Assembly: GCA_963667665.2 (NCBI GenBank)
Contig: OY763927.2
Location: 224,001-288,000, forward strand
Source of the DNA: Nitrosopumilus sp.
GTDB lineage: Archaea; Thermoproteota; Nitrososphaeria; Nitrososphaerales; Nitrosopumilaceae
DNA: 64,000 bases
Reading direction: 5' to 3'
The position numbers and the translations under genes are program-made. Under the pieces are notes generated by a model. The model was not told the DNA's origin, searched no databases, and saw only the letters and a program-made list of their open reading frames with translations. Numbering within the stretch: position 1 is the first letter of the stretch; each line of letters opens with the position of its first letter. This document shows positions 2 to 9,401 of the stretch, in pieces.

Positions 2-163
2 TGCAGAGAAGCTAAAATAGACAAGGAATACATCAATGCCTTTTGTGGTCGCATATCACAAGGTATGCTTGAGCGAAGCTACACAAGCTATTCACCTACT
101 GCATTACGCAAACAATACGACAAAGTAGAATCACTTCTTACATTACCTTTCACTGAAAGCTAA
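2..163 (+). CDS. Tyrosine recombinase/integrase, C-terminal part (5' end outside window)
   Basis: Frame 2 reads CREAKIDKEYINAFCGRISQGMLERSYTSYSPTALRKQYDKVESLLTLPFTES*; the YIxAFCGR...L.R.YT.YS pattern matches the C-terminal catalytic region (Tyr nucleophile) of archaeal integrases. Not in ORF track. Confidence 0.7.
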   Translation, partial: CREAKIDKEYINAFCGRISQGMLERSYTSYSPTALRKQYDKVESLLTLPFTES

Positions 164-417
164 TCACTTTAGTAACCAATCAAATGTGAATGTCCTTAGA
201 TATGTTACTTTAAGAAAAGCTATCAAAAGCTCTTTTTTTCACGCCTGAAAAGCTAAGTGAAAGTAGCTAATGTCATGCCTATTAGCTACTAAGAAGCTAG
301 TTTCTGAAAACTGACATGCACAAACTATACAGTTTAGCTACTTTTTTGAGATTAGCTAAGCTTTTAGCTAAATCTGTTTCTTAGCTGATTTTCATGCCTG
401 AATGTATTGTTTGTTAT

Positions 418-443
418 TGCGTAATCTATAGTAGGACTACGAA
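418..443 (+). other. Putative recombination site type 1, copy 1 (TGCGTAATC-tatagtag-GACTACGAA)
   Basis: Imperfect inverted repeat with 8-nt spacer; near-identical arms recur at 2246 and 4564. Confidence 0.55.
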
Positions 444-522
444 TTAATGGTGTGTTGTTACTGTGAGTGTATTTTGAGAAATTTCAACGACCTTTTTGTA
501 GGATACTTGACATTAAATTAAT

Positions 523-1686
523 TCATTTAGTTTTCATCTCAAATATTTCATTGATATCATATACAATGTTATGTAAAATTGTAGATGATGGACTTAGTAT
601 GATTTGTTGTTCAGTATGAGCCATACTGTTTCTAAGATAATTACCTGCATGATACATTTGAAATTTCCATTTTGGGATACCATTTTCTATAAGCCAATTC
701 ATGATATTTTTCATAGTAAGAGGAAATTTTTTATCATTGACTGTTATGTGTTTTAGTTTCCAACCCTTTTGTCTCATCAATTGACGAACAGAATTTGAGA
801 TATCATGATATGATGGATCTGTGTATTCTTGTAGGATTTCTGAATTATGTTTTATTATGGCTTTATTTCCCAATGATTGAATATATCTTAATTTCATTGC
901 AGATTCATGAGAAAATAATGCTGAGCGAACAGATAAAGTATAAAATTCATATTTAAAATAACAAAACACAAACAAATCTTTTGCTCTTTGAAATTCTTCT
1001 TGTATGGATTTAGGAACATGTGGACTGAATTGCATATCTGATACTATTTCTTGTAATTTTTCTAGTGATAATGAGGTTCTAACATCTGGTACAAGTAGAT
1101 CTATATCTGATAATACTGTATCTGATTTTAATTTGTAACGTAAATTAAAATCTACTTTAACCTCTGTGTCATATTGAGCCATAAAATACTCATTGAAATC
1201 AGTAATAAACAAATGTCTAAAATCATCATAAAATCGTTTAGGATTGTTCTTAATGTTATAACGTGTAAATCTTATTCTAGATGTTCTACTTGGAAAGAAA
1301 CCAGTATATTCAAAATTTATTGTAATATCATCTGCAATTTGATTTGAATCATTTTTATCTATTTTGAAATACTGTACTAGTACGTTTGTTAATTCGTCTT
1401 TATTTGATGAAATTTTTCCAAAATATGTTGTTTGTTTCATTCCCATTTTTTCCAGATCGTAATGAATTAGTTGGATAATATCATCTTCTAGATGAGGATA
1501 TTTTTTATTATCTACACTGATGTCTATTATTCCAACTGGAAACGGTAGTTTGCTTAATCCCGTAAGTATTGTTTGTTCTTTTGGAGTTATTTCATCAGGC
1601 TTTTTACTATAATAGTTTGTAAGATCTTTTTTTGCAAATTCAAAAGAATTTGTAAATAATATATCCCATTCCACTAATTTAACCAA
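523..1686 (-). CDS. Hypothetical protein with C-terminal HEPN-like RxxxxH motif
   Basis: 387-aa ORF; helical C-terminus with LRNSMAH. Confidence 0.55.
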   Translation of the reverse strand: MVKLVEWDILFTNSFEFAKKDLTNYYSKKPDEITPKEQTILTGLSKLPFPVGIIDISVDNKKYPHLEDDIIQLIHYDLEKMGMKQTTYFGKISSNKDELTNVLVQYFKIDKNDSNQIADDITINFEYTGFFPSRTSRIRFTRYNIKNNPKRFYDDFRHLFITDFNEYFMAQYDTEVKVDFNLRYKLKSDTVLSDIDLLVPDVRTSLSLEKLQEIVSDMQFSPHVPKSIQEEFQRAKDLFVFCYFKYEFYTLSVRSALFSHESAMKLRYIQSLGNKAIIKHNSEILQEYTDPSYHDISNSVRQLMRQKGWKLKHITVNDKKFPLTMKNIMNWLIENGIPKWKFQMYHAGNYLRNSMAHTEQQIILSPSSTILHNIVYDINEIFEMKTK

Positions 1687-1766
1687 GAATTAATTGCCTA
1701 TTAATTATGAATGTATTTTAGTAGATTAACACATAATTTTTATTTAAATTTAATAATATATCGGAC

Positions 1767-2165
1767 TTAGATCTTAATGTTATTTTGAATCATATCTAAT
1801 ACAAATTCTGGTTGAATCTCACCATAACTATTTTTTAACTCATTAATAGTATGCCAACCACCAATTTTAGCTACAAAGCCATAATTGTAATCTGTTTTTT
1901 CAAGCCAATAGTGAGCTCCTATATGTCTCAAAGCATGGAATGAATTGTTGTAATAGTATTCTTCTGATTTTTCCAAATGTTTGAATATTTGTCTTAATTG
2001 GTTTCTAAGTTTATCTTCTGCATGCTTGACATTTCCTAAATTAGTCCATATCTTGTCTTGTTTTCTATTTTTATGAGATTTTAAACTTTGTTGTGTATTG
2101 TTTCTTGTAATGTATTTTATCCATTTACCATCTTTAATGTAAGACGTTTTAGAATGTCTAATTTT
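1767..2165 (-). pseudogene. Tyrosine recombinase remnant (catalytic C-terminal third)
   Basis: FHALRH...IGGW...NSYG motifs; the frame stays open upstream to about 2165 and then hits stops with no start codon. Confidence 0.75.
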
Positions 2166-2245
2166 TTATCATGTGTAACTAGAGCCATATTACAACATCT
2201 TAAAATTTTTGATAAAAGTTAGAATGTTTTTCTTAATTCATTAGA

Positions 2246-2271
2246 TTCGTAATCATTATAGAGATTACACA
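2246..2271 (-). other. Putative recombination site type 1, copy 2 (minus strand TGTGTAATC-tctataat-GATTACGAA)
   Basis: Same arms as 418 and 4564, opposite orientation. Confidence 0.55.
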
Positions 2272-2345
2272 ATATCAGTACCTTACAATCCTTAGGATTG
2301 GTAATTATCAATAATGCAAAATACTTAAGTATTTAGAATCAAGGT

Positions 2346-4562
2346 TTGAGATTAATGCAATTATTTGGATTAATTTTAGCCTCAATTACATTATTTTCAA
2401 TAATTGGACTGTCTGAATCATTTGCAGAATTTATTCCCAATCCAAGGCAACAATTAGAATCCGGTATTAACCCTGAAGATATTCAATGTAAAGAGAATCG
2501 TGTACTTGTCATTCGCAGTAATGGTAACCCAGCTTGTGTTACTCAAAAGACAGCAGACAGAACAGGGTGGGAAATTATTAAACCAAGCTTTGATAAAATA
2601 GAAATTCCAACAGATGATGAAAAAATTATTCTACAAAATAAAGTATTAGAAAACAATGAACTCACATTTTCCTCAAATCCAATTGGTTTTGAAATTATGA
2701 CAATTCCTAATGATGAACCCCTCAACATATCAGTTTCACAAATTCAAGAATTTAAAGATGAGTATGTTGAAACTCCTGATTTTGCATCATGTGACAATAA
2801 ACTTTCTACCATAATACTAAATTCCTTTGATTTATCAATTGATTTGCATATTGCTGCTAGTTGGTGGTCTGATTCAGATCATAGAGATACTAATTCAGGC
2901 ATAATCTGTATAATTGAACCCGATAGAAACTTAGACTTAGAATCTAAAGACTCTTTTGATGTAACTGTATGGTCTACATCCGACTCAAATAGAATTAACA
3001 TCACTGTGACAGAAATTAGCGAATCTAGTGGATTATTTGGAGGATTTGTTCCATTTACAAATCAAAAACAATCATTAGAAAACAAACTGAAAGTCGAAAA
3101 AAGCGATACAGTATATGTAAATTATGAAGATGATACATTACCTCAACCATACGGAACAAACGGATTTACAGATAAACTGAATATTACTGGAACATCATCA
3201 ATTGGTTGGAATGTACCAAAATATCAAATAAATTATAATATGGACATTATTGATGAACTGAAAAAAAAATATAGTGTATTTTTTCACGGTGAAGAAAAAA
3301 CTGCCATAGACTATGCACTGTCGCAAAAAATTAAAAATGAAAAACACCTAATTGTGTGTGGTGATGAAGTTAACTCCGACCAACCTTATGATCCATTAGA
3401 TTATCCTTTTGATCTTTTTTCAAGACAATATACTGTGAGAGAGCATCGTCCTGCCCCTCCTCAATTGAACCAGGAATTATACATGGGAGAAAATAAAAAT
3501 TCTCGAGTCATCACAGATATCAAAACAAATTACAATGATCAAAATTTGTATAGTTTAGATCCGAATAGTCTTATTCCAACGTGTCTTCCTATCGGACAAA
3601 CAATAAAATTTATTGTTCATACATCAACAAAACCTAATCTTGATTCTCAACGAGTTGAAGTTATGGATATGATAATTGGACCAAATACTCTGAAAATCTC
3701 CGAAGACAATATTGTTAATGATTTGTATAACGAACATGGAATTAAAATAAAAATTGATACACTTCCATTTTATTTGGATAATGATTATTCACGTTCCAAA
3801 CATTTTATGTCTAATTATGGACCTGTAGCTTATTCTGTTATGACTACCAAAACTCTCACATATTGTGGTTTTGATGAGAAAAATAATCAAGTATGCACAA
3901 CAGGGTTTGGCACATTTAATCTAGGTTCATCTATTACATTTATTGCAGATGGAAAACATATTTCGTTATCCACATATAGATACAATTTAGAAACTTTAAT
4001 TGATATTGCCTCATCCATGAAGAATCTTAATTTCATTCAAACATCAGATTATCTAGATTCTGTAAAATCTAAACCTGAATTGAGAACGTATGGGGGTCTT
4101 TATGGTCATACATTATCTGTAACTCAAAAATGGTCATCCAGTTCAGATACTGAAAATATTGATCAATTAGTAAAACTTCCAAAATATGTTCCAGATGATC
4201 TTGAGCTTGTTGTTGTATATGATCATTCAAAAGATACATGGCAAGATGAACATAATCAAATTCAAACATGGTATGTTACAAAAAATTTCAACGCTTCAAG
4301 TCTTGTTAATGTAATTGAAAATGGAGTAAATATAGTAATTACAGATTCTGTAGAGTATGATGAAGAATTAGTTTCACAATTTGCAAAGGACAAAGATATG
4401 ACTTTAAGTGAGTTTAATGGTCACATGTCATTAATTTATGAAATTGATAATGGTGCCTATTTGTTATTTTATGATGAACAAAGCCAAATTGAATTATATT
4501 CAAAGAAATACAATTTGGATGAACTCATTAAAATTGGAGAATCATTAATTGGATCAAACTAG
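2346..4562 (+). CDS. Secreted protein with N-terminal thaumarchaeal P..Q...G...C...PACV module
   Basis: Signal peptide; PRQQLESGINPEDIQCKENRVLVIRSNGNPACV motif; 738 aa. Confidence 0.7.
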   Translation: MRLMQLFGLILASITLFSIIGLSESFAEFIPNPRQQLESGINPEDIQCKENRVLVIRSNGNPACVTQKTADRTGWEIIKPSFDKIEIPTDDEKIILQNKVLENNELTFSSNPIGFEIMTIPNDEPLNISVSQIQEFKDEYVETPDFASCDNKLSTIILNSFDLSIDLHIAASWWSDSDHRDTNSGIICIIEPDRNLDLESKDSFDVTVWSTSDSNRINITVTEISESSGLFGGFVPFTNQKQSLENKLKVEKSDTVYVNYEDDTLPQPYGTNGFTDKLNITGTSSIGWNVPKYQINYNMDIIDELKKKYSVFFHGEEKTAIDYALSQKIKNEKHLIVCGDEVNSDQPYDPLDYPFDLFSRQYTVREHRPAPPQLNQELYMGENKNSRVITDIKTNYNDQNLYSLDPNSLIPTCLPIGQTIKFIVHTSTKPNLDSQRVEVMDMIIGPNTLKISEDNIVNDLYNEHGIKIKIDTLPFYLDNDYSRSKHFMSNYGPVAYSVMTTKTLTYCGFDEKNNQVCTTGFGTFNLGSSITFIADGKHISLSTYRYNLETLIDIASSMKNLNFIQTSDYLDSVKSKPELRTYGGLYGHTLSVTQKWSSSSDTENIDQLVKLPKYVPDDLELVVVYDHSKDTWQDEHNQIQTWYVTKNFNASSLVNVIENGVNIVITDSVEYDEELVSQFAKDKDMTLSEFNGHMSLIYEIDNGAYLLFYDEQSQIELYSKKYNLDELIKIGESLIGSN

Positions 4563-4563
4563 A

Positions 4564-4589
4564 TGCGTAATCCTATACAAGATTACGAA
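4564..4589 (+). other. Putative recombination site type 1, copy 3 (TGCGTAATC-ctatacaa-GATTACGAA)
   Basis: Starts 1 nt after the stop of 2346..4562; same arms as the other two copies. Confidence 0.55.
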
Positions 4590-4610: not shown

Positions 4611-5552
4611 TTAAAAAAATTCGCTTATTTCATGGGTCTTGTTAGTTACTACTTTGATGCCTCCTCCAATCATTTCTGTTTTAACTTTGGTAATTTTCCT
4701 AGCTGAATCTATAATGTTTCCTGCACCTTTACTATTTGTGGCAATAATGATATGATATCCAATTTGGTTTCCTGATTGAAAAACTGGAATGTCGTAAACA
4801 AATTTTTTAAATTTACTAATTTTATTCTTGTAAATTGTCATTAATTCTTCCCCTTTTGTAGTTGATTCCCATGATGAATCACCATAAAATTCTGATAATG
4901 ATTTTCCATAACTATTGTCTAAAGTGCAATTTGATCTATGTCTAGCAACTACATGTGTCATAAATGTAAAAATAACATCTGCAGTATCAATTGTTAGAAC
5001 ACGTTGCATTAAGTCCCATTTGATTTCTTTAAATCCAATAGGATCTATTACGACTAAAAATGCTTTTTTGAATCCATTAAGATCTTCTATAATTTTTACT
5101 GATTCAGAAAATTCTTTTTTTTCAACTGTTATTATTTTTGGACTTATCAAAGTAGACAGTTTTCCGATCCTCTCTTTTAACGTTCTAATTGATTCCATAT
5201 CTTCATCAAATAAGAAATACTTGGAAAATGATTTGTCATTACTTTTTAGGAGACTTACTAATGAACTTCCTGGAAATCTTTCTTCTATGAGCTCAGGTTC
5301 GCTGAATTTGATTAAACCTGAACCACAATGAGTATCTACATAGTAAAATTTATCAAAATATTTCCGAAAAATTGGAACAAATCCTCCTATGCAATAACTA
5401 ATTATCAAAAATTTCTTTATTGACCAGACATCTCCTGGAGATAATTTTAATCCGTCTTTTTTTATAATATCTATTTTTGAAATTAAATTTTCTACTCTAA
5501 TTTTTGCCCATTCGTAAGGATCAAATGACATGCTATTCTCTTTTGAATTCAT
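4611..5552 (-). CDS. tcmP: Three-Cys-motif partner protein (SAM-dependent methyltransferase-like)
   Basis: WSIKK..., YVDTHCGSG, GSSL, IDPIG motifs; adjacent to a DUF5131 gene, the usual pairing. Confidence 0.8.
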   Translation of the reverse strand: MNSKENSMSFDPYEWAKIRVENLISKIDIIKKDGLKLSPGDVWSIKKFLIISYCIGGFVPIFRKYFDKFYYVDTHCGSGLIKFSEPELIEERFPGSSLVSLLKSNDKSFSKYFLFDEDMESIRTLKERIGKLSTLISPKIITVEKKEFSESVKIIEDLNGFKKAFLVVIDPIGFKEIKWDLMQRVLTIDTADVIFTFMTHVVARHRSNCTLDNSYGKSLSEFYGDSSWESTTKGEELMTIYKNKISKFKKFVYDIPVFQSGNQIGYHIIIATNSKGAGNIIDSARKITKVKTEMIGGGIKVVTNKTHEISEFF

Positions 5553-5655: not shown

Positions 5656-6495
5656 ATGTCTAATTCTTCGACAATAGAATGGACTGAATCTACGTGGAAC
5701 CCTAGTACTGGATGTAGTAAAGTTTCTCTTGGTTGTAAAAATTGTTATGCTGAAAAAATGTCTAAACGACTTAATTTAATGGGAGTAAAAAAATATAGAA
5801 ATATTTTTAAATTTACTGAACATCCTCAGGATTTAGAACTTCCATTAACATGGAAAAAACCAAAAAAAGTATTTGTTAATAGTATGTCAGATTTATTTCA
5901 TGAAGATTCGCGAATGGAATTTGTTGGAAGTTGTTTCAATACAATGATAAAAGGTGATCATCATGTTTATCAGGTTTTAACTAAACGTCCTGAAACCATG
6001 TCTGATTTTTCACAATTATTTGAAAATTATTTTGGAGATATAATACCTCCACACATTTGGATGGGAACAAGTGTTGAGAATGAGGATTTCAAATGGAGAA
6101 TTGATGCATTAAGACAAGTGAAGTGTTATACAAAATTTCTAAGCATAGAACCTCTTTTAGGTCCAATGGGAAAATTAGATCTAACTGATATTGATTGGGT
6201 AATTGTTGGTGGTGAAAGTGGGTCCAATTTTAGACCTGTTCATAAAGATTGGATTGTAGATGTTGTAAAACAATGTAAAAAACAAAAAGTTGCGGTTTTC
6301 TTTAAGCAATGGGGTGGATTCAGACCTAAATCTGGTGGTAGAAAACTCAATGGAAGAATATATAGCCAATATCCTAAGATCACCAATATTGAGAATATTT
6401 TGAAGGAAGTAGAATATGATGAAAAAGAATTCGCAAAATTCTCAAAAATGAAAATTAAACAAAAAAAATCACCTGTTTTAGAAAAAATAGTTTGA
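5656..6495 (+). CDS. DUF5131 / phage Gp37-Gp68 family protein (radical-SAM-like)
   Basis: IEWTESTWNP.TGC.KVS.GCKNCYA, FVNSMSDLFH, LTKRP, SIEPLL, WVIVGGESG, FFKQWGG. Confidence 0.92.
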   Translation: MSNSSTIEWTESTWNPSTGCSKVSLGCKNCYAEKMSKRLNLMGVKKYRNIFKFTEHPQDLELPLTWKKPKKVFVNSMSDLFHEDSRMEFVGSCFNTMIKGDHHVYQVLTKRPETMSDFSQLFENYFGDIIPPHIWMGTSVENEDFKWRIDALRQVKCYTKFLSIEPLLGPMGKLDLTDIDWVIVGGESGSNFRPVHKDWIVDVVKQCKKQKVAVFFKQWGGFRPKSGGRKLNGRIYSQYPKITNIENILKEVEYDEKEFAKFSKMKIKQKKSPVLEKIV

Positions 6496-6631
6496 AATTT
6501 TATTTCATTATGTGAACTATGCAGAAAGAGGATCATGATGTAAAAGAGATTGATCTATGGTTCACACATACTAAACCTGCAATTTATATCAAATCCAATT
6601 GTCTTCATTTTCATTGCCAAGACAAGTCAGG

Positions 6632-7823: not shown

Positions 7824-7996
7824 TGTTTATCTGGACATAATACATAATCATTCTATTAAAAGATCTTTGTGATTTTTACAAGATTTTGATAATATATAAC
7901 TAAATTTTGTAACTCAATTAATTTTCTTAAGTTGTTATTTATTTTTTTAAATAACACTGTTTTATATCATAATTTAATAATATAAGATGTTATTAC

Positions 7997-8110
7997 ATGG
8001 TAAAAGATGTTGATGAAGAATATCTAAAAAGTACGCAGGAGTTATTCCTTGAACTATTTATGGATACAGACAAGATTCTAAAAAAAATCAAATATCGGAC
8101 ACGAAAATAA
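7997..8110 (+). CDS. Possible small protein (37 aa)
   Basis: MVKDVDEEYLKSTQELFLELFMDTDKILKKIKYRTRK downstream of an AT-rich TATA-like region; below the ORF-track cutoff. Confidence 0.3.
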   Translation: MVKDVDEEYLKSTQELFLELFMDTDKILKKIKYRTRK

Positions 8111-8123
8111 AGAATAAACAATT

Positions 8124-9401
8124 TTAACTCAAAATCACGCCTATATCCATAAGATTTGTGTGAGTAAAATCAGTTACAATACTTGCTTTTTGTTTTTGAA
8201 AGAATCTACCTGAATCACTATTTTTGAGAAACTCTTTCATTGTATCCAAATCAATCCTAATATTTTCTGTAATGGCTCCAGCAAAAACAGAATTTCCATC
8301 TATCCCATCAGTTCCAATTGATGCAATGACTATTTTTTTTAATTTTTGAGTGTTTTTTAAAATTCTTAAAACTAATTCTTGATTTCTTCCCCCCATTCCT
8401 TTTCCAATAACTCTGACTGTTGTCTCTCCACCAAAAATAAGACATGTTTTTTGATTCTCTGAAATGTTTTCAAGAATTTTTGTCACTGCATCTTTAATGT
8501 CTCCAAAAACCTGTATACTGGAAACTTGATATCCTATTTCTTTAGCTTTTTTTTGCATTGCTTCTAAGCAATCATTATTGTTTGCAATAATGTAATTTTC
8601 AATTTTTGCTTTCTTTGGTGTTTCTATGTTTTCTTTTATTTTACCGTTCTCTAAAGTTTGTAAAACTTCATCAGGCATTTTCCATTTTATTTTGTATTTT
8701 TCTATAATTTTTAATGCATCTGCATATGTAGTATCGTCCATGTGTGTTGTTCCTGATGCAATTGATGAAAGATCATCTCCTTCTACATCTGACATTATGA
8801 GGCCTATTCCTTGGCATTTCATATTTTCAACTAATTTACCTCCCTTGATTTTTGATAGATGTTTTCTAATACAATTAAACTCTTGAATTGTTGCACCTGA
8901 TTTTAATAACACAGTTGTAACATGAATTTTATCATCAAGTGTTATTTCATTTGGCATTGCAAGAAGTGATGATCCTCCTCCAGAAACAAGAAAAATTATT
9001 AATTCGTCACTTCGTTTATTTTGGACAAATTTCATTACTTCCTTTGCTGCCTTTACACTTGTCTTGTCTGGTTTTGGGTGCCTAGAATTAAAAATCTGAA
9101 ACTTTTTACCCTTAATTATTGACTTTGAGCCTTTTGGAATTACCACAATTCCACTTTTTATGGGAATTATTGCATTAAGTGTCCTTGTCATTGAATCTCC
9201 AGCTTTCCCAAATGCTACAGAATAGATATTTGAAAATTTTTCAATATTGATTGATTTGCCCCCAATCTTGATTTCATTAGGTGTAACATACTTTGGAATG
9301 ATGTTTTCTGGATTTGCTGCTTGAAGACCTGCTTCTAGAATTTCTAAACACTCCTTTTTCTTATCTGTAGTTGCTAAATCTTTGAAATTTTGTATAATCA
9401 T
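8124..9401 (-). CDS. Glycerate 2-kinase (DUF4147 + MOFRL)
   Basis: GKA, SGGGSSL, RKHLSKIKGG, SDVEGDD, GGETTV, GGRNQE, GTDGIDG, TNLMD motifs. Confidence 0.92.
   Translation of the reverse strand: MIIQNFKDLATTDKKKECLEILEAGLQAANPENIIPKYVTPNEIKIGGKSINIEKFSNIYSVAFGKAGDSMTRTLNAIIPIKSGIVVIPKGSKSIIKGKKFQIFNSRHPKPDKTSVKAAKEVMKFVQNKRSDELIIFLVSGGGSSLLAMPNEITLDDKIHVTTVLLKSGATIQEFNCIRKHLSKIKGGKLVENMKCQGIGLIMSDVEGDDLSSIASGTTHMDDTTYADALKIIEKYKIKWKMPDEVLQTLENGKIKENIETPKKAKIENYIIANNNDCLEAMQKKAKEIGYQVSSIQVFGDIKDAVTKILENISENQKTCLIFGGETTVRVIGKGMGGRNQELVLRILKNTQKLKKIVIASIGTDGIDGNSVFAGAITENIRIDLDTMKEFLKNSDSGRFFQKQKASIVTDFTHTNLMDIGVILS

Follow-up and report, generated by a model that had tools for sequence, protein, structure and literature searches.

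A 64,000-nucleotide stretch of a Nitrosopumilus sp. genome (G000 C1:224001-288000, referred to here as the window) was found to contain three short palindromic sites in the cargo end of an integrated element that encodes two tyrosine recombinases, Int1 and Int2. These sites probably act (we put the probability near 0.7, from comparison of sequences) as a lox/dif-type platform for cassette exchange that splits the cargo end of the element into modules, a layout that resembles an integron without being one. Computational comparison across genomes places them in a family of sites that is restricted to islands, lies with fixed polarity after two clades of integrases, forms arrays, coincides with breakpoints of homology and falls into distinct spacer classes.

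The three sites and their family

The motif TGCGTAATC-N8-GATTACGAA is found at window positions 418-443, 2246-2271 and 4564-4589 with 1, 1 and 0 mismatches, respectively. When both strands were counted the window held 6 motif matches, compared to a mean of 0.08 in shuffled sequence, and none of 100 shuffles reached 6. A scan of the whole 1.89-Mb G000 genome at up to 3 mismatches returned these three sites only, all within 4.2 kb, and a weight-matrix scan of the same genome scored them at 29.2-36.3 bits with the next best match at 19.2 bits. The preliminary description of this DNA had placed the motif at exactly these positions, and had reasoned that a genome-wide motif would point to an operator rather than to recombination. 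The genome holds three copies, all in one island, and the idea of a genome-wide operator was dropped for that reason. The list of open reading frames (ORFs) in the window confirms that all three sites are intergenic and that one of them lies 1 nt from a stop codon, since a 738-amino acid (aa) ORF ends at 4562, stop codon included, and site 3 starts at 4564. The arms are conserved and the three 8-nt spacers, read in that description as TATAGTAG, TCTATAAT and CTATACAA, are indeed all different.

The orientation of the sites had to be revised. The strand labels given earlier (+,-,+) were based on G or T at arm position 2, but among 95 sites this position has the same make-up on both arms (G 0.36 and T 0.60 on the left arm; C 0.38 and A 0.55, in complement, on the right arm) and therefore carries no orientation. 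Orientation was instead read from C-T-A at spacer positions 1-3 and A at position 8, and it is ambiguous where a spacer has no CTA. Read in this manner, site 1 (418..443, - strand, TTCGTAGTC CTACTATA GATTACGCA, 34.0 bits) lies 254 nt past the Int2 stop codon and is followed by site 2 (2246..2271, + strand, TTCGTAATC ATTATAGA GATTACACA, 29.2 bits) and site 3 (4564..4589, + strand, TGCGTAATC CTATACAA GATTACGAA, 36.3 bits), which carries the commonest spacer class. The resulting order of -,+,+ in G000 is not the pdif-style alternation that had been proposed, and orientation is mixed in other arrays as well, for example + - - + - - in L045.

The degenerate pattern TKYGTAATC-N8-GAYTACRMA was present in 42 of 401 Nitrosopumilaceae genomes (three of the 42, G077, G092 and G093, are unpublished) and in 10 of 27 genera, and the reversed control pattern was present in 1 genome of the 401. 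In a sample of the phylum the pattern was found in G000 and in 2 of 56 other Nitrosopumilaceae; the 344 genomes from beyond the family gave one genome with a match, whose spacer is a run of T. An orientation-seeking alignment of 95 sites gave the consensus TKCGTAATC, C-T-A-N-N-N-N-A, GATTACGMA, with A at spacer position 8 in 95% of sites and C, T and A at positions 1-3 in 64%, 83% and 75%. The conserved unit measures 26-28 bp and the flanks are not conserved; the site is asymmetric, and a division into 10-bp arms with 6 bp between them would be equally valid. Matches in IMG/VR, which amounted to 7 single-site contigs, were taken as unrelated, with 6 of the 7 at a GC content of 0.49-0.52 and no relatives of Int1 or Int2 among them. 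The site family is widespread and apparently undescribed; no description of such arrays was found in the literature outside subscription journals and supplementary files.

The preliminary description had also named the host XerA as a possible actor on these sites. A site that mimics the host dif predicts a matching site in the chromosome, and G000 has no further site, which argues against this proposal. Additionally, 359 of the 401 family genomes have no match to the pattern, though this is an indirect test of dif likeness, and no usable Nitrosopumilus host dif was found in the literature.

Breakpoints of homology and spacer classes

Evidence that the sites are points of exchange comes from comparing what lies on either side of them. 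The 50-nt flanks of 124 sites were compared in pairs, and rows in which a sub-locus duplicates a larger locus were dropped. A pair was called one-sided when one flank was at least 80% identical and the other at most 50%, and by this measure 14 same-orientation and 3 mixed-orientation pairs were one-sided. Just 1 pair was alike on both flanks, and it lies inside a duplicated region; an earlier and smaller count had given 7 one-sided and 0 two-sided pairs. One left flank (X) continues, past the site, into another right flank in G106 than in G072, and one right flank (Y) is joined to three different left flanks.

Alignments of whole loci were also inspected. When L037 was compared with L045, an Int1-like gene, a spacer region of about 410 bp and the first site, with the spacer GTATATGA, were kept at 71%, but the alignment stopped 1 nt past the site with unrelated DNA beyond, and the same holds for L035. 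Two G387 contigs (L087 and L088) share 1924 bp, with Int2 and four sites, at 99.7% identity and diverge exactly at the outer edge of a site, and in G377 a 541-bp stretch that runs from inside one bounding site through the other occurs in two contexts at 98%. The G387:C11 locus has the same backbone as G000 (Int1-like gene, winged helix-turn-helix (wHTH) gene, primase at 81% aa identity, Int2-like gene) and the same terminal module (CTATACAA site, TcmP, DUF5131 at 65% aa identity), whereas the modules in between differ. Lastly, the population of the window itself offers an example, in contigs from public runs X1 and X4. These agree with the window from base 5 of site 3 onward to the right but carry other, unrelated DNA to the left, of which a 30-base piece was not found in G000. 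The result is a junction in which a variant left arm precedes the site 3 spacer, right arm and right flank. This junction has the form that would be expected from exchange with another CTATACAA site. The earlier proposal that the sites delimit exchangeable cargo beside an integrase, which breakpoints lying away from the sites would have contradicted, is borne out in substance, as the breakpoints fall at the sites both between genomes and in metagenomes.

Spacers were counted over 117 distinct sites of at least 24 bits, with unpublished loci left out. These sites carry 53 spacers and form 240 identical-spacer pairs, 227 of which have unrelated flanks, compared to 7.9 identical pairs expected from column frequencies (standard deviation 3.2, maximum 23 in 2000 draws). 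The commonest spacers are CTATACAA (13 sites), CATAGTAA (10), GTATATGA (9) and CTATATCA (8). The spacer is common to both members in 10 of the 14 one-sided pairs, and in L045 and L036 like-spacer sites stand as nested inverted pairs. The ordered pair CTACTATA(-)/ATTATAGA(+) follows Int2 in both G000 and G387:C15, where unrelated DNA of 1802 and 737 bp, respectively, lies between the two sites. Tyrosine recombinases in general prefer matching central regions, and the spacer classes fit recombination with such a preference, though a fit is not proof. As a separate observation, G269 contains a 12.8-kb stretch twice (L049, C1:4000-23999, and L050, C1:1375000-1394999), 99.9% identical, inverted and 1.37 Mb apart, and each copy carries one site with the spacer CTTAGGCA.

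Arrays, integrases and the proposed mechanism

Int2 is a 308-aa Xer-like tyrosine recombinase encoded at G000 C1:223237-224163, and its C-terminus (window 2..163, + strand) is the open frame at the start of the window, which had been read correctly as the end of a tyrosine integrase. The protein matches Pfam Phage_integrase (3.9e-14), its best NCBIfam model is archaeal XerA (78.6 bits, under the cut-off of 220), and in an alignment to XerA (PDB 5HXY, E 5e-5, the closest solved relative) the catalytic Arg, Lys, H-x-x-R and Tyr are in place. The best model for Int1, a 359-aa integrase, is also archaeal XerA, again below the cut-off.

To describe the arrays, 20 contexts were selected because they held site clusters or came from complete genomes; the presence of an integrase played no part in the choice. 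In 9 of the 20, no more than about 0.8 kb separates the 3' end of an integrase from the first site of the array, and in a tenth (L038) the distance is 3.2 kb. A search of the 401 genomes at E <=1e-25, with a site threshold of at least 18 bits, gave 26 Int2-like genes in 20 genomes. At least one site was present within 1.5 kb on the 3' side of 14 of the 26 genes (one of the 14 is in the unpublished G206 and two are near-identical copies in G387), and the 1.5 kb on the 5' side held a site in none of the 26. In a quick tree of 34 integrases, sites lie 3' of 10 of 18 members of the Int2-like clade, 5 of 11 members of the Int1-like clade and 0 of 5 members of a third clade, which consists of three other G000 integrases and two from relatives. 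Of the 16 PF00589 matches in G000, 11 exceed the cut-off, and Int2 alone is followed by sites; two identical PF00589 copies lie on opposite strands at C1:1837351 and C1:1847351.

The arrays consist of short modules that lie in both orientations, with the integrase reading toward the array. Measured over 68 intervals, neighbouring sites are a median of 775 bp apart (range 5-4194 bp), and 64 of 68 sites lie outside ORFs of at least 70 aa. Cargo was scanned in 65 of 84 inter-site ORFs; the other 19 were ORFs of integrases or pseudogenes, a duplicate, and those shorter than about 75 aa. The scan found DUF6659 (4), HxlR (2), histidine kinases (2), methyltransferases (2) and BNR (2), as well as an AAA_15/AAA_21 protein, OLD-like TOPRIM (of an OLD-type ATPase/TOPRIM protein), SIR2_2, NYN, a lectin-like domain, P-II and others. 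In G234 a six-site array with variant arms TTCATAATC...GATTATGAA (L051 10291-15586) has no Int1/Int2-like integrase in 20 kb and lies within an 8.8-kb insertion relative to G333, and G333 has a 13-kb Int2 element that is missing from G234.

Sites tend toward gene 3' ends on either side (31 vs 18 and 33 vs 18), and with this bias equal on both sides, the attC-like polarity that was looked for between a site and its neighbouring gene was not found. A preference for gene 3' ends, a 9-bp stem with an 8-nt loop that could fold, and a wHTH protein encoded by the element would all suit a palindromic operator or a transcript hairpin/terminator that has no role in recombination. However, every copy of the site in G000 is inside the island, homology between loci breaks off at the sites, and it is to integrases, not to the wHTH gene, that the sites are linked with polarity. 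Site pairs 5-16 bp apart, moreover, make no sense as terminators, which leaves this explanation with very little probability.

Alternatively, the sites could be scars of accretion, each being the att junction left when small elements with their own integrases integrated one after another, with no system acting in trans. The module between sites 1 and 2 holds an integrase remnant (window 1767..2195, - strand), the 5'-truncated and frameshifted C-terminal part of a third kind of tyrosine recombinase. Three-frame translation of the remnant gives HALRH...GGWH...Y with a PF00589 match of 3.3e-5, and it falls outside both the Int1-like and the Int2-like clade but has a 50%-identical relative at G000 C1:343204-343545. 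Such a remnant speaks for accretion, and the accessible text of PMC6563490 describes archaeal tyrosine-recombinase elements that form arrays by re-using a single integration site. On the other hand, the median spacing of 775 bp, with six intervals of 57 bp or less, is too small for autonomous elements, most intervals have no integrase, and the first site stays fixed beside the integrase while the DNA downstream of it varies. Accretion is thus considered unlikely.

The arrangement could also reflect multimer resolution or circularisation in the manner of Cre/loxP or cer, with only the integrase-adjacent site functional and the others being relics of cointegrates. The P4-type primase of the element suggests that it probably replicates, a site does lie close to the 3' end of the integrase, and the G333 element has a single site. 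Yet arrays reach up to 6 well-kept sites (28-40 bits) that extend kilobases from the integrase, and some arrays have no Int1/Int2-like integrase detected nearby. The distal sites also keep consensus arms and recurrent spacer classes, both of which unselected relics would lose. A resolution site of this kind appears quite improbable.

The model favoured here is therefore one of cassette exchange. In it, the three sites are tyrosine-recombinase core sites of the loxP, FRT and dif kind, with two 9-10-bp inverted arms flanking a 6-8-bp central region, and the element whose cargo end they split is plasmid-like. An element-encoded Xer-like integrase would bind the arms, and Int2 is the candidate in G000 because its gene reads into the array. 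Strands would then be exchanged over the central region, in most cases with a like-spacer site on another element or on a circular intermediate. Modules would thereby be inserted, excised, inverted or swapped. Binding of the arms, the points of cleavage, the choice of integrase and the requirement for identical spacers are parts of the model that we infer from the comparisons. A bolder version, which we hold only tentatively and consider rather doubtful, would make the 8-bp spacer an address, such that sites recombine chiefly with like-spacer sites, and a module between two different spacer classes is shielded from deletion and can still be swapped whole between elements by double crossover. 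The pointers to it are the spacer classes, the shared spacers of the one-sided pairs and the ordered pair common to G000 and G387:C15. If the address version is true, the arrays would be a natural counterpart of engineered heterospecific-lox cassette exchange in which like-spacer inverted pairs flip segments, and they would have an origin independent of bacterial integrons and be run by two clades of Xer-like integrases.

Several caveats weigh against cassette exchange in general or against parts of it. The support for it is comparative throughout, and the relatives compared are kin, so the counts overstate independence. Many of the genomes are, besides, fragmented metagenome-assembled genomes. 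The integrase tree came from a quick, unfinished search. Among the 26 Int2-like genes, 12 have no site within 1.5 kb, although three of these have less than 650 bp of flank, and a tblastn search with Int1 and Int2 of the window detected no Int1/Int2-like gene in the fetched DNA of arrays L042, L051 and L036. The two integrase clades are distant and share a single site consensus, which makes the acting enzyme ambiguous. With regard to the spacers, 4 of the 14 one-sided pairs have unlike spacers, contrary to a strict like-with-like rule, and the idea that the spacer travels with one arm failed, as the cases with unlike spacers were 2 left-only and 2 right-only. In G000 itself the three spacers differ, so no rearrangement among sites 1-3 would be expected and the local array looks static. 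The variant junction at site 3 could come from a co-occurring strain and not from a recent event, and no excision circle or inversion joint at sites 1-3 was seen in the public-run contigs, which cannot show absence.

The integrated element, known systems and meaning

Sites 1-3 are internal to a 12.7-kb integrated element bounded by the 12-bp direct repeat AAACCTGCAATT, with attL at G000 C1:217871-217882, outside the window, and attR at window 6573..6584. Core genes ending with purN precede the element on the left. From attL the order is an insertion sequence (IS), Int1, the wHTH gene on the other strand, the P4-type primase, Int2, a repeat-rich region and site 1, followed by a 387-aa gene with the integrase remnant, site 2, the 738-aa gene, site 3, the TcmP-DUF5131 genes and attR. 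When a 20-kb query was compared with 100 genomes of the genus, an empty site was found in G307 and G394, where the left flank just past purN abuts the right flank (from window 6573) with a 15-bp overlap that corresponds to the 12-bp repeat. The same empty junction is present in G377, and the precise empty-site joint (L052 3870->16573) was found in contigs of runs X4, X12 and X14. In the public-run contigs the depth of the island is about 1/4 to 2/3 of the depth of its flanks.

No tRNA gene lies in the 20 kb around the island, and a tRNA-linked att was rejected on that ground. The palindromic sites were also rejected as the island's own att, given that the island ends at the 12-bp repeat and its left end has no fourth site or half-site pair. 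Judged by position alone, next to attL, Int1 may be the enzyme that integrates the whole island at AAACCTGCAATT, but this role is uncertain because Int1-like enzymes directly precede arrays in other genera. The IS just inside attL (L001 7936-8932, G000 C1:217936-218932) has HTH_Tnp_4 and DDE_Tnp_4 in two ORFs, and its depth in the mapped contigs is 2-7x that of the rest of the island, which indicates that it is multi-copy. A second variable spot was noticed at window ~7861-8124. In G377 it is occupied by an N-terminal fragment of Int1-like type with three sites after it (L082), and a loose end was seen there in runs X1 and X4, at L052 17958.

The region between Int2 and site 1 (window 164..417, + strand) is dense in short repeats of the TTAGCTA(A) type, with AGCT occurring 11 times in 254 bp vs 2.3 per kb genome-wide. 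Repeat families D1-D9 were distinguished here, and the short repeats include TTAGCTAA, GAAAAGCTA and TTTTCAYGCCTGAA, the last in two copies. AGCT-type clusters are present at the equivalent place in L043, L039 and L033, and four more loci have other short repeats there, seen by eye only. By analogy with attI, this region may hold accessory (arm-type) binding sites, which would make the first site the entry point of the array.

The cargo in the window was assigned to families with differing success. The 387-aa ORF of module 1 (window 523..1686, - strand) has no assigned family, as no match was found in Pfam, NCBIfam or PADLOC. The preliminary description called it HEPN-like, for which there is a weak lead in Atlas (nearest named cluster RnlA/HEPN_RnaseLS, score 0.80) and an R-x4-H motif seen by eye. 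The 738-aa ORF of module 2 (window 2346..4562, + strand) has a WING-49 domain (NCBIfam, 1.7e-15) and a hydrophobic N-terminus that by eye resembles a signal peptide, and is a putative surface protein; its N-terminal part recurs in site-adjacent cargo at L045 6243-8105, L051 12523-13395 and L038 16697-18883. The terminal module begins with TcmP, the three-Cys-motif partner (window 4611..5552, - strand; TIGR04474 4.2e-26, PADLOC PDC-M41A 1.2e-13), and continues with its partner, a DUF5131 protein (window 5656..6495, + strand; PF07505 2.6e-88, PADLOC PDC-M41B/M30B ~1e-103). These two genes are a candidate defence pair.

As a whole the island resembles the cryptic integrated elements of thaumarchaea, for which the accessible text of Krupovic et al. 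(2019, PMC6563490) describes short att repeats. It shares with them a short direct-repeat att (12 bp here), an integrase, a primase-type replication gene and cargo of unknown function, and direct-repeat bounds, an empty site in relatives and an integrase are all present. Internal arrays of palindromic sites, as in this island, are not described in that text.

The closest likeness in layout is to integrons, which likewise combine a tyrosine recombinase gene, a conserved first site, a variable array of short modules and diverse accessory cargo, and among which arrays without a detected integrase also occur. However, Int1 and Int2 fail the integron-integrase (IntI) model (TIGR02249; Int2 34.0 bits and Int1 21.4 bits vs a cut-off of 265). 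The attC sites of integrons are 57-141-bp long imperfect palindromes with conserved R and L boxes, and the sites reported here, set against that general description of attC, are 26-bp palindromes with perfect arms. Also unlike integrons, the integrase reads toward the array, the modules lie both ways and the spacers form discrete classes. Archaeal integrons with canonical IntI and attC are described in the accessible text of Ghaly et al. (2022, PMC9668308), and integrons are listed in that of PMC6563490 among the element types not found in thaumarchaea.

Other site-specific systems share some features as well. The anatomy of lox, FRT and dif core sites (arms around a 6-8-bp centre) and recombinant breakpoints at the site are both found here. 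In the pdif modules of Acinetobacter, short dif-type sites bound small accessory modules; short arm-spacer-arm sites in both orientations likewise bound small accessory modules on mobile DNA in the present case. Differences from pdif are that there is no sign of host-dif mimicry or strict alternation, that element-encoded recombinases stand beside the arrays, and that the sites are carried by integrated elements of archaea. Cre/loxP of phage P1 and FLP/FRT have inverted arms, an asymmetric 8-bp spacer and an adjacent recombinase gene, and a dependence on spacer identity would explain the spacer classes seen here. In contrast to them, the arms are 9-10 bp vs 13 bp, each element has many sites and there are many spacer classes; also, the closest solved relative of Int2 is XerA and not Cre. 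Shufflons (Rci, sfx) have several sites beside a tyrosine recombinase, and inverted like-spacer pairs such as those in L045 and L036 would invert segments in a comparable manner, but shufflon segments are alternative 3' ends of one gene and undergo inversion only, whereas here whole unrelated genes differ between genomes.

A system of this kind would mean that the problem addressed by integrons has been solved a second time, independently, and its compact 26-bp sites, natural spacer classes and small recombinases could find use as orthogonal tools for recombination. Ammonia-oxidising archaea rank with the most abundant microbes of the sea and of sponges, and the exchange of accessory genes among them is poorly known. 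A platform for module exchange in about one tenth of the sampled genomes of the family, with cargo that includes candidate defence genes and surface proteins, would explain part of the variability of their islands.

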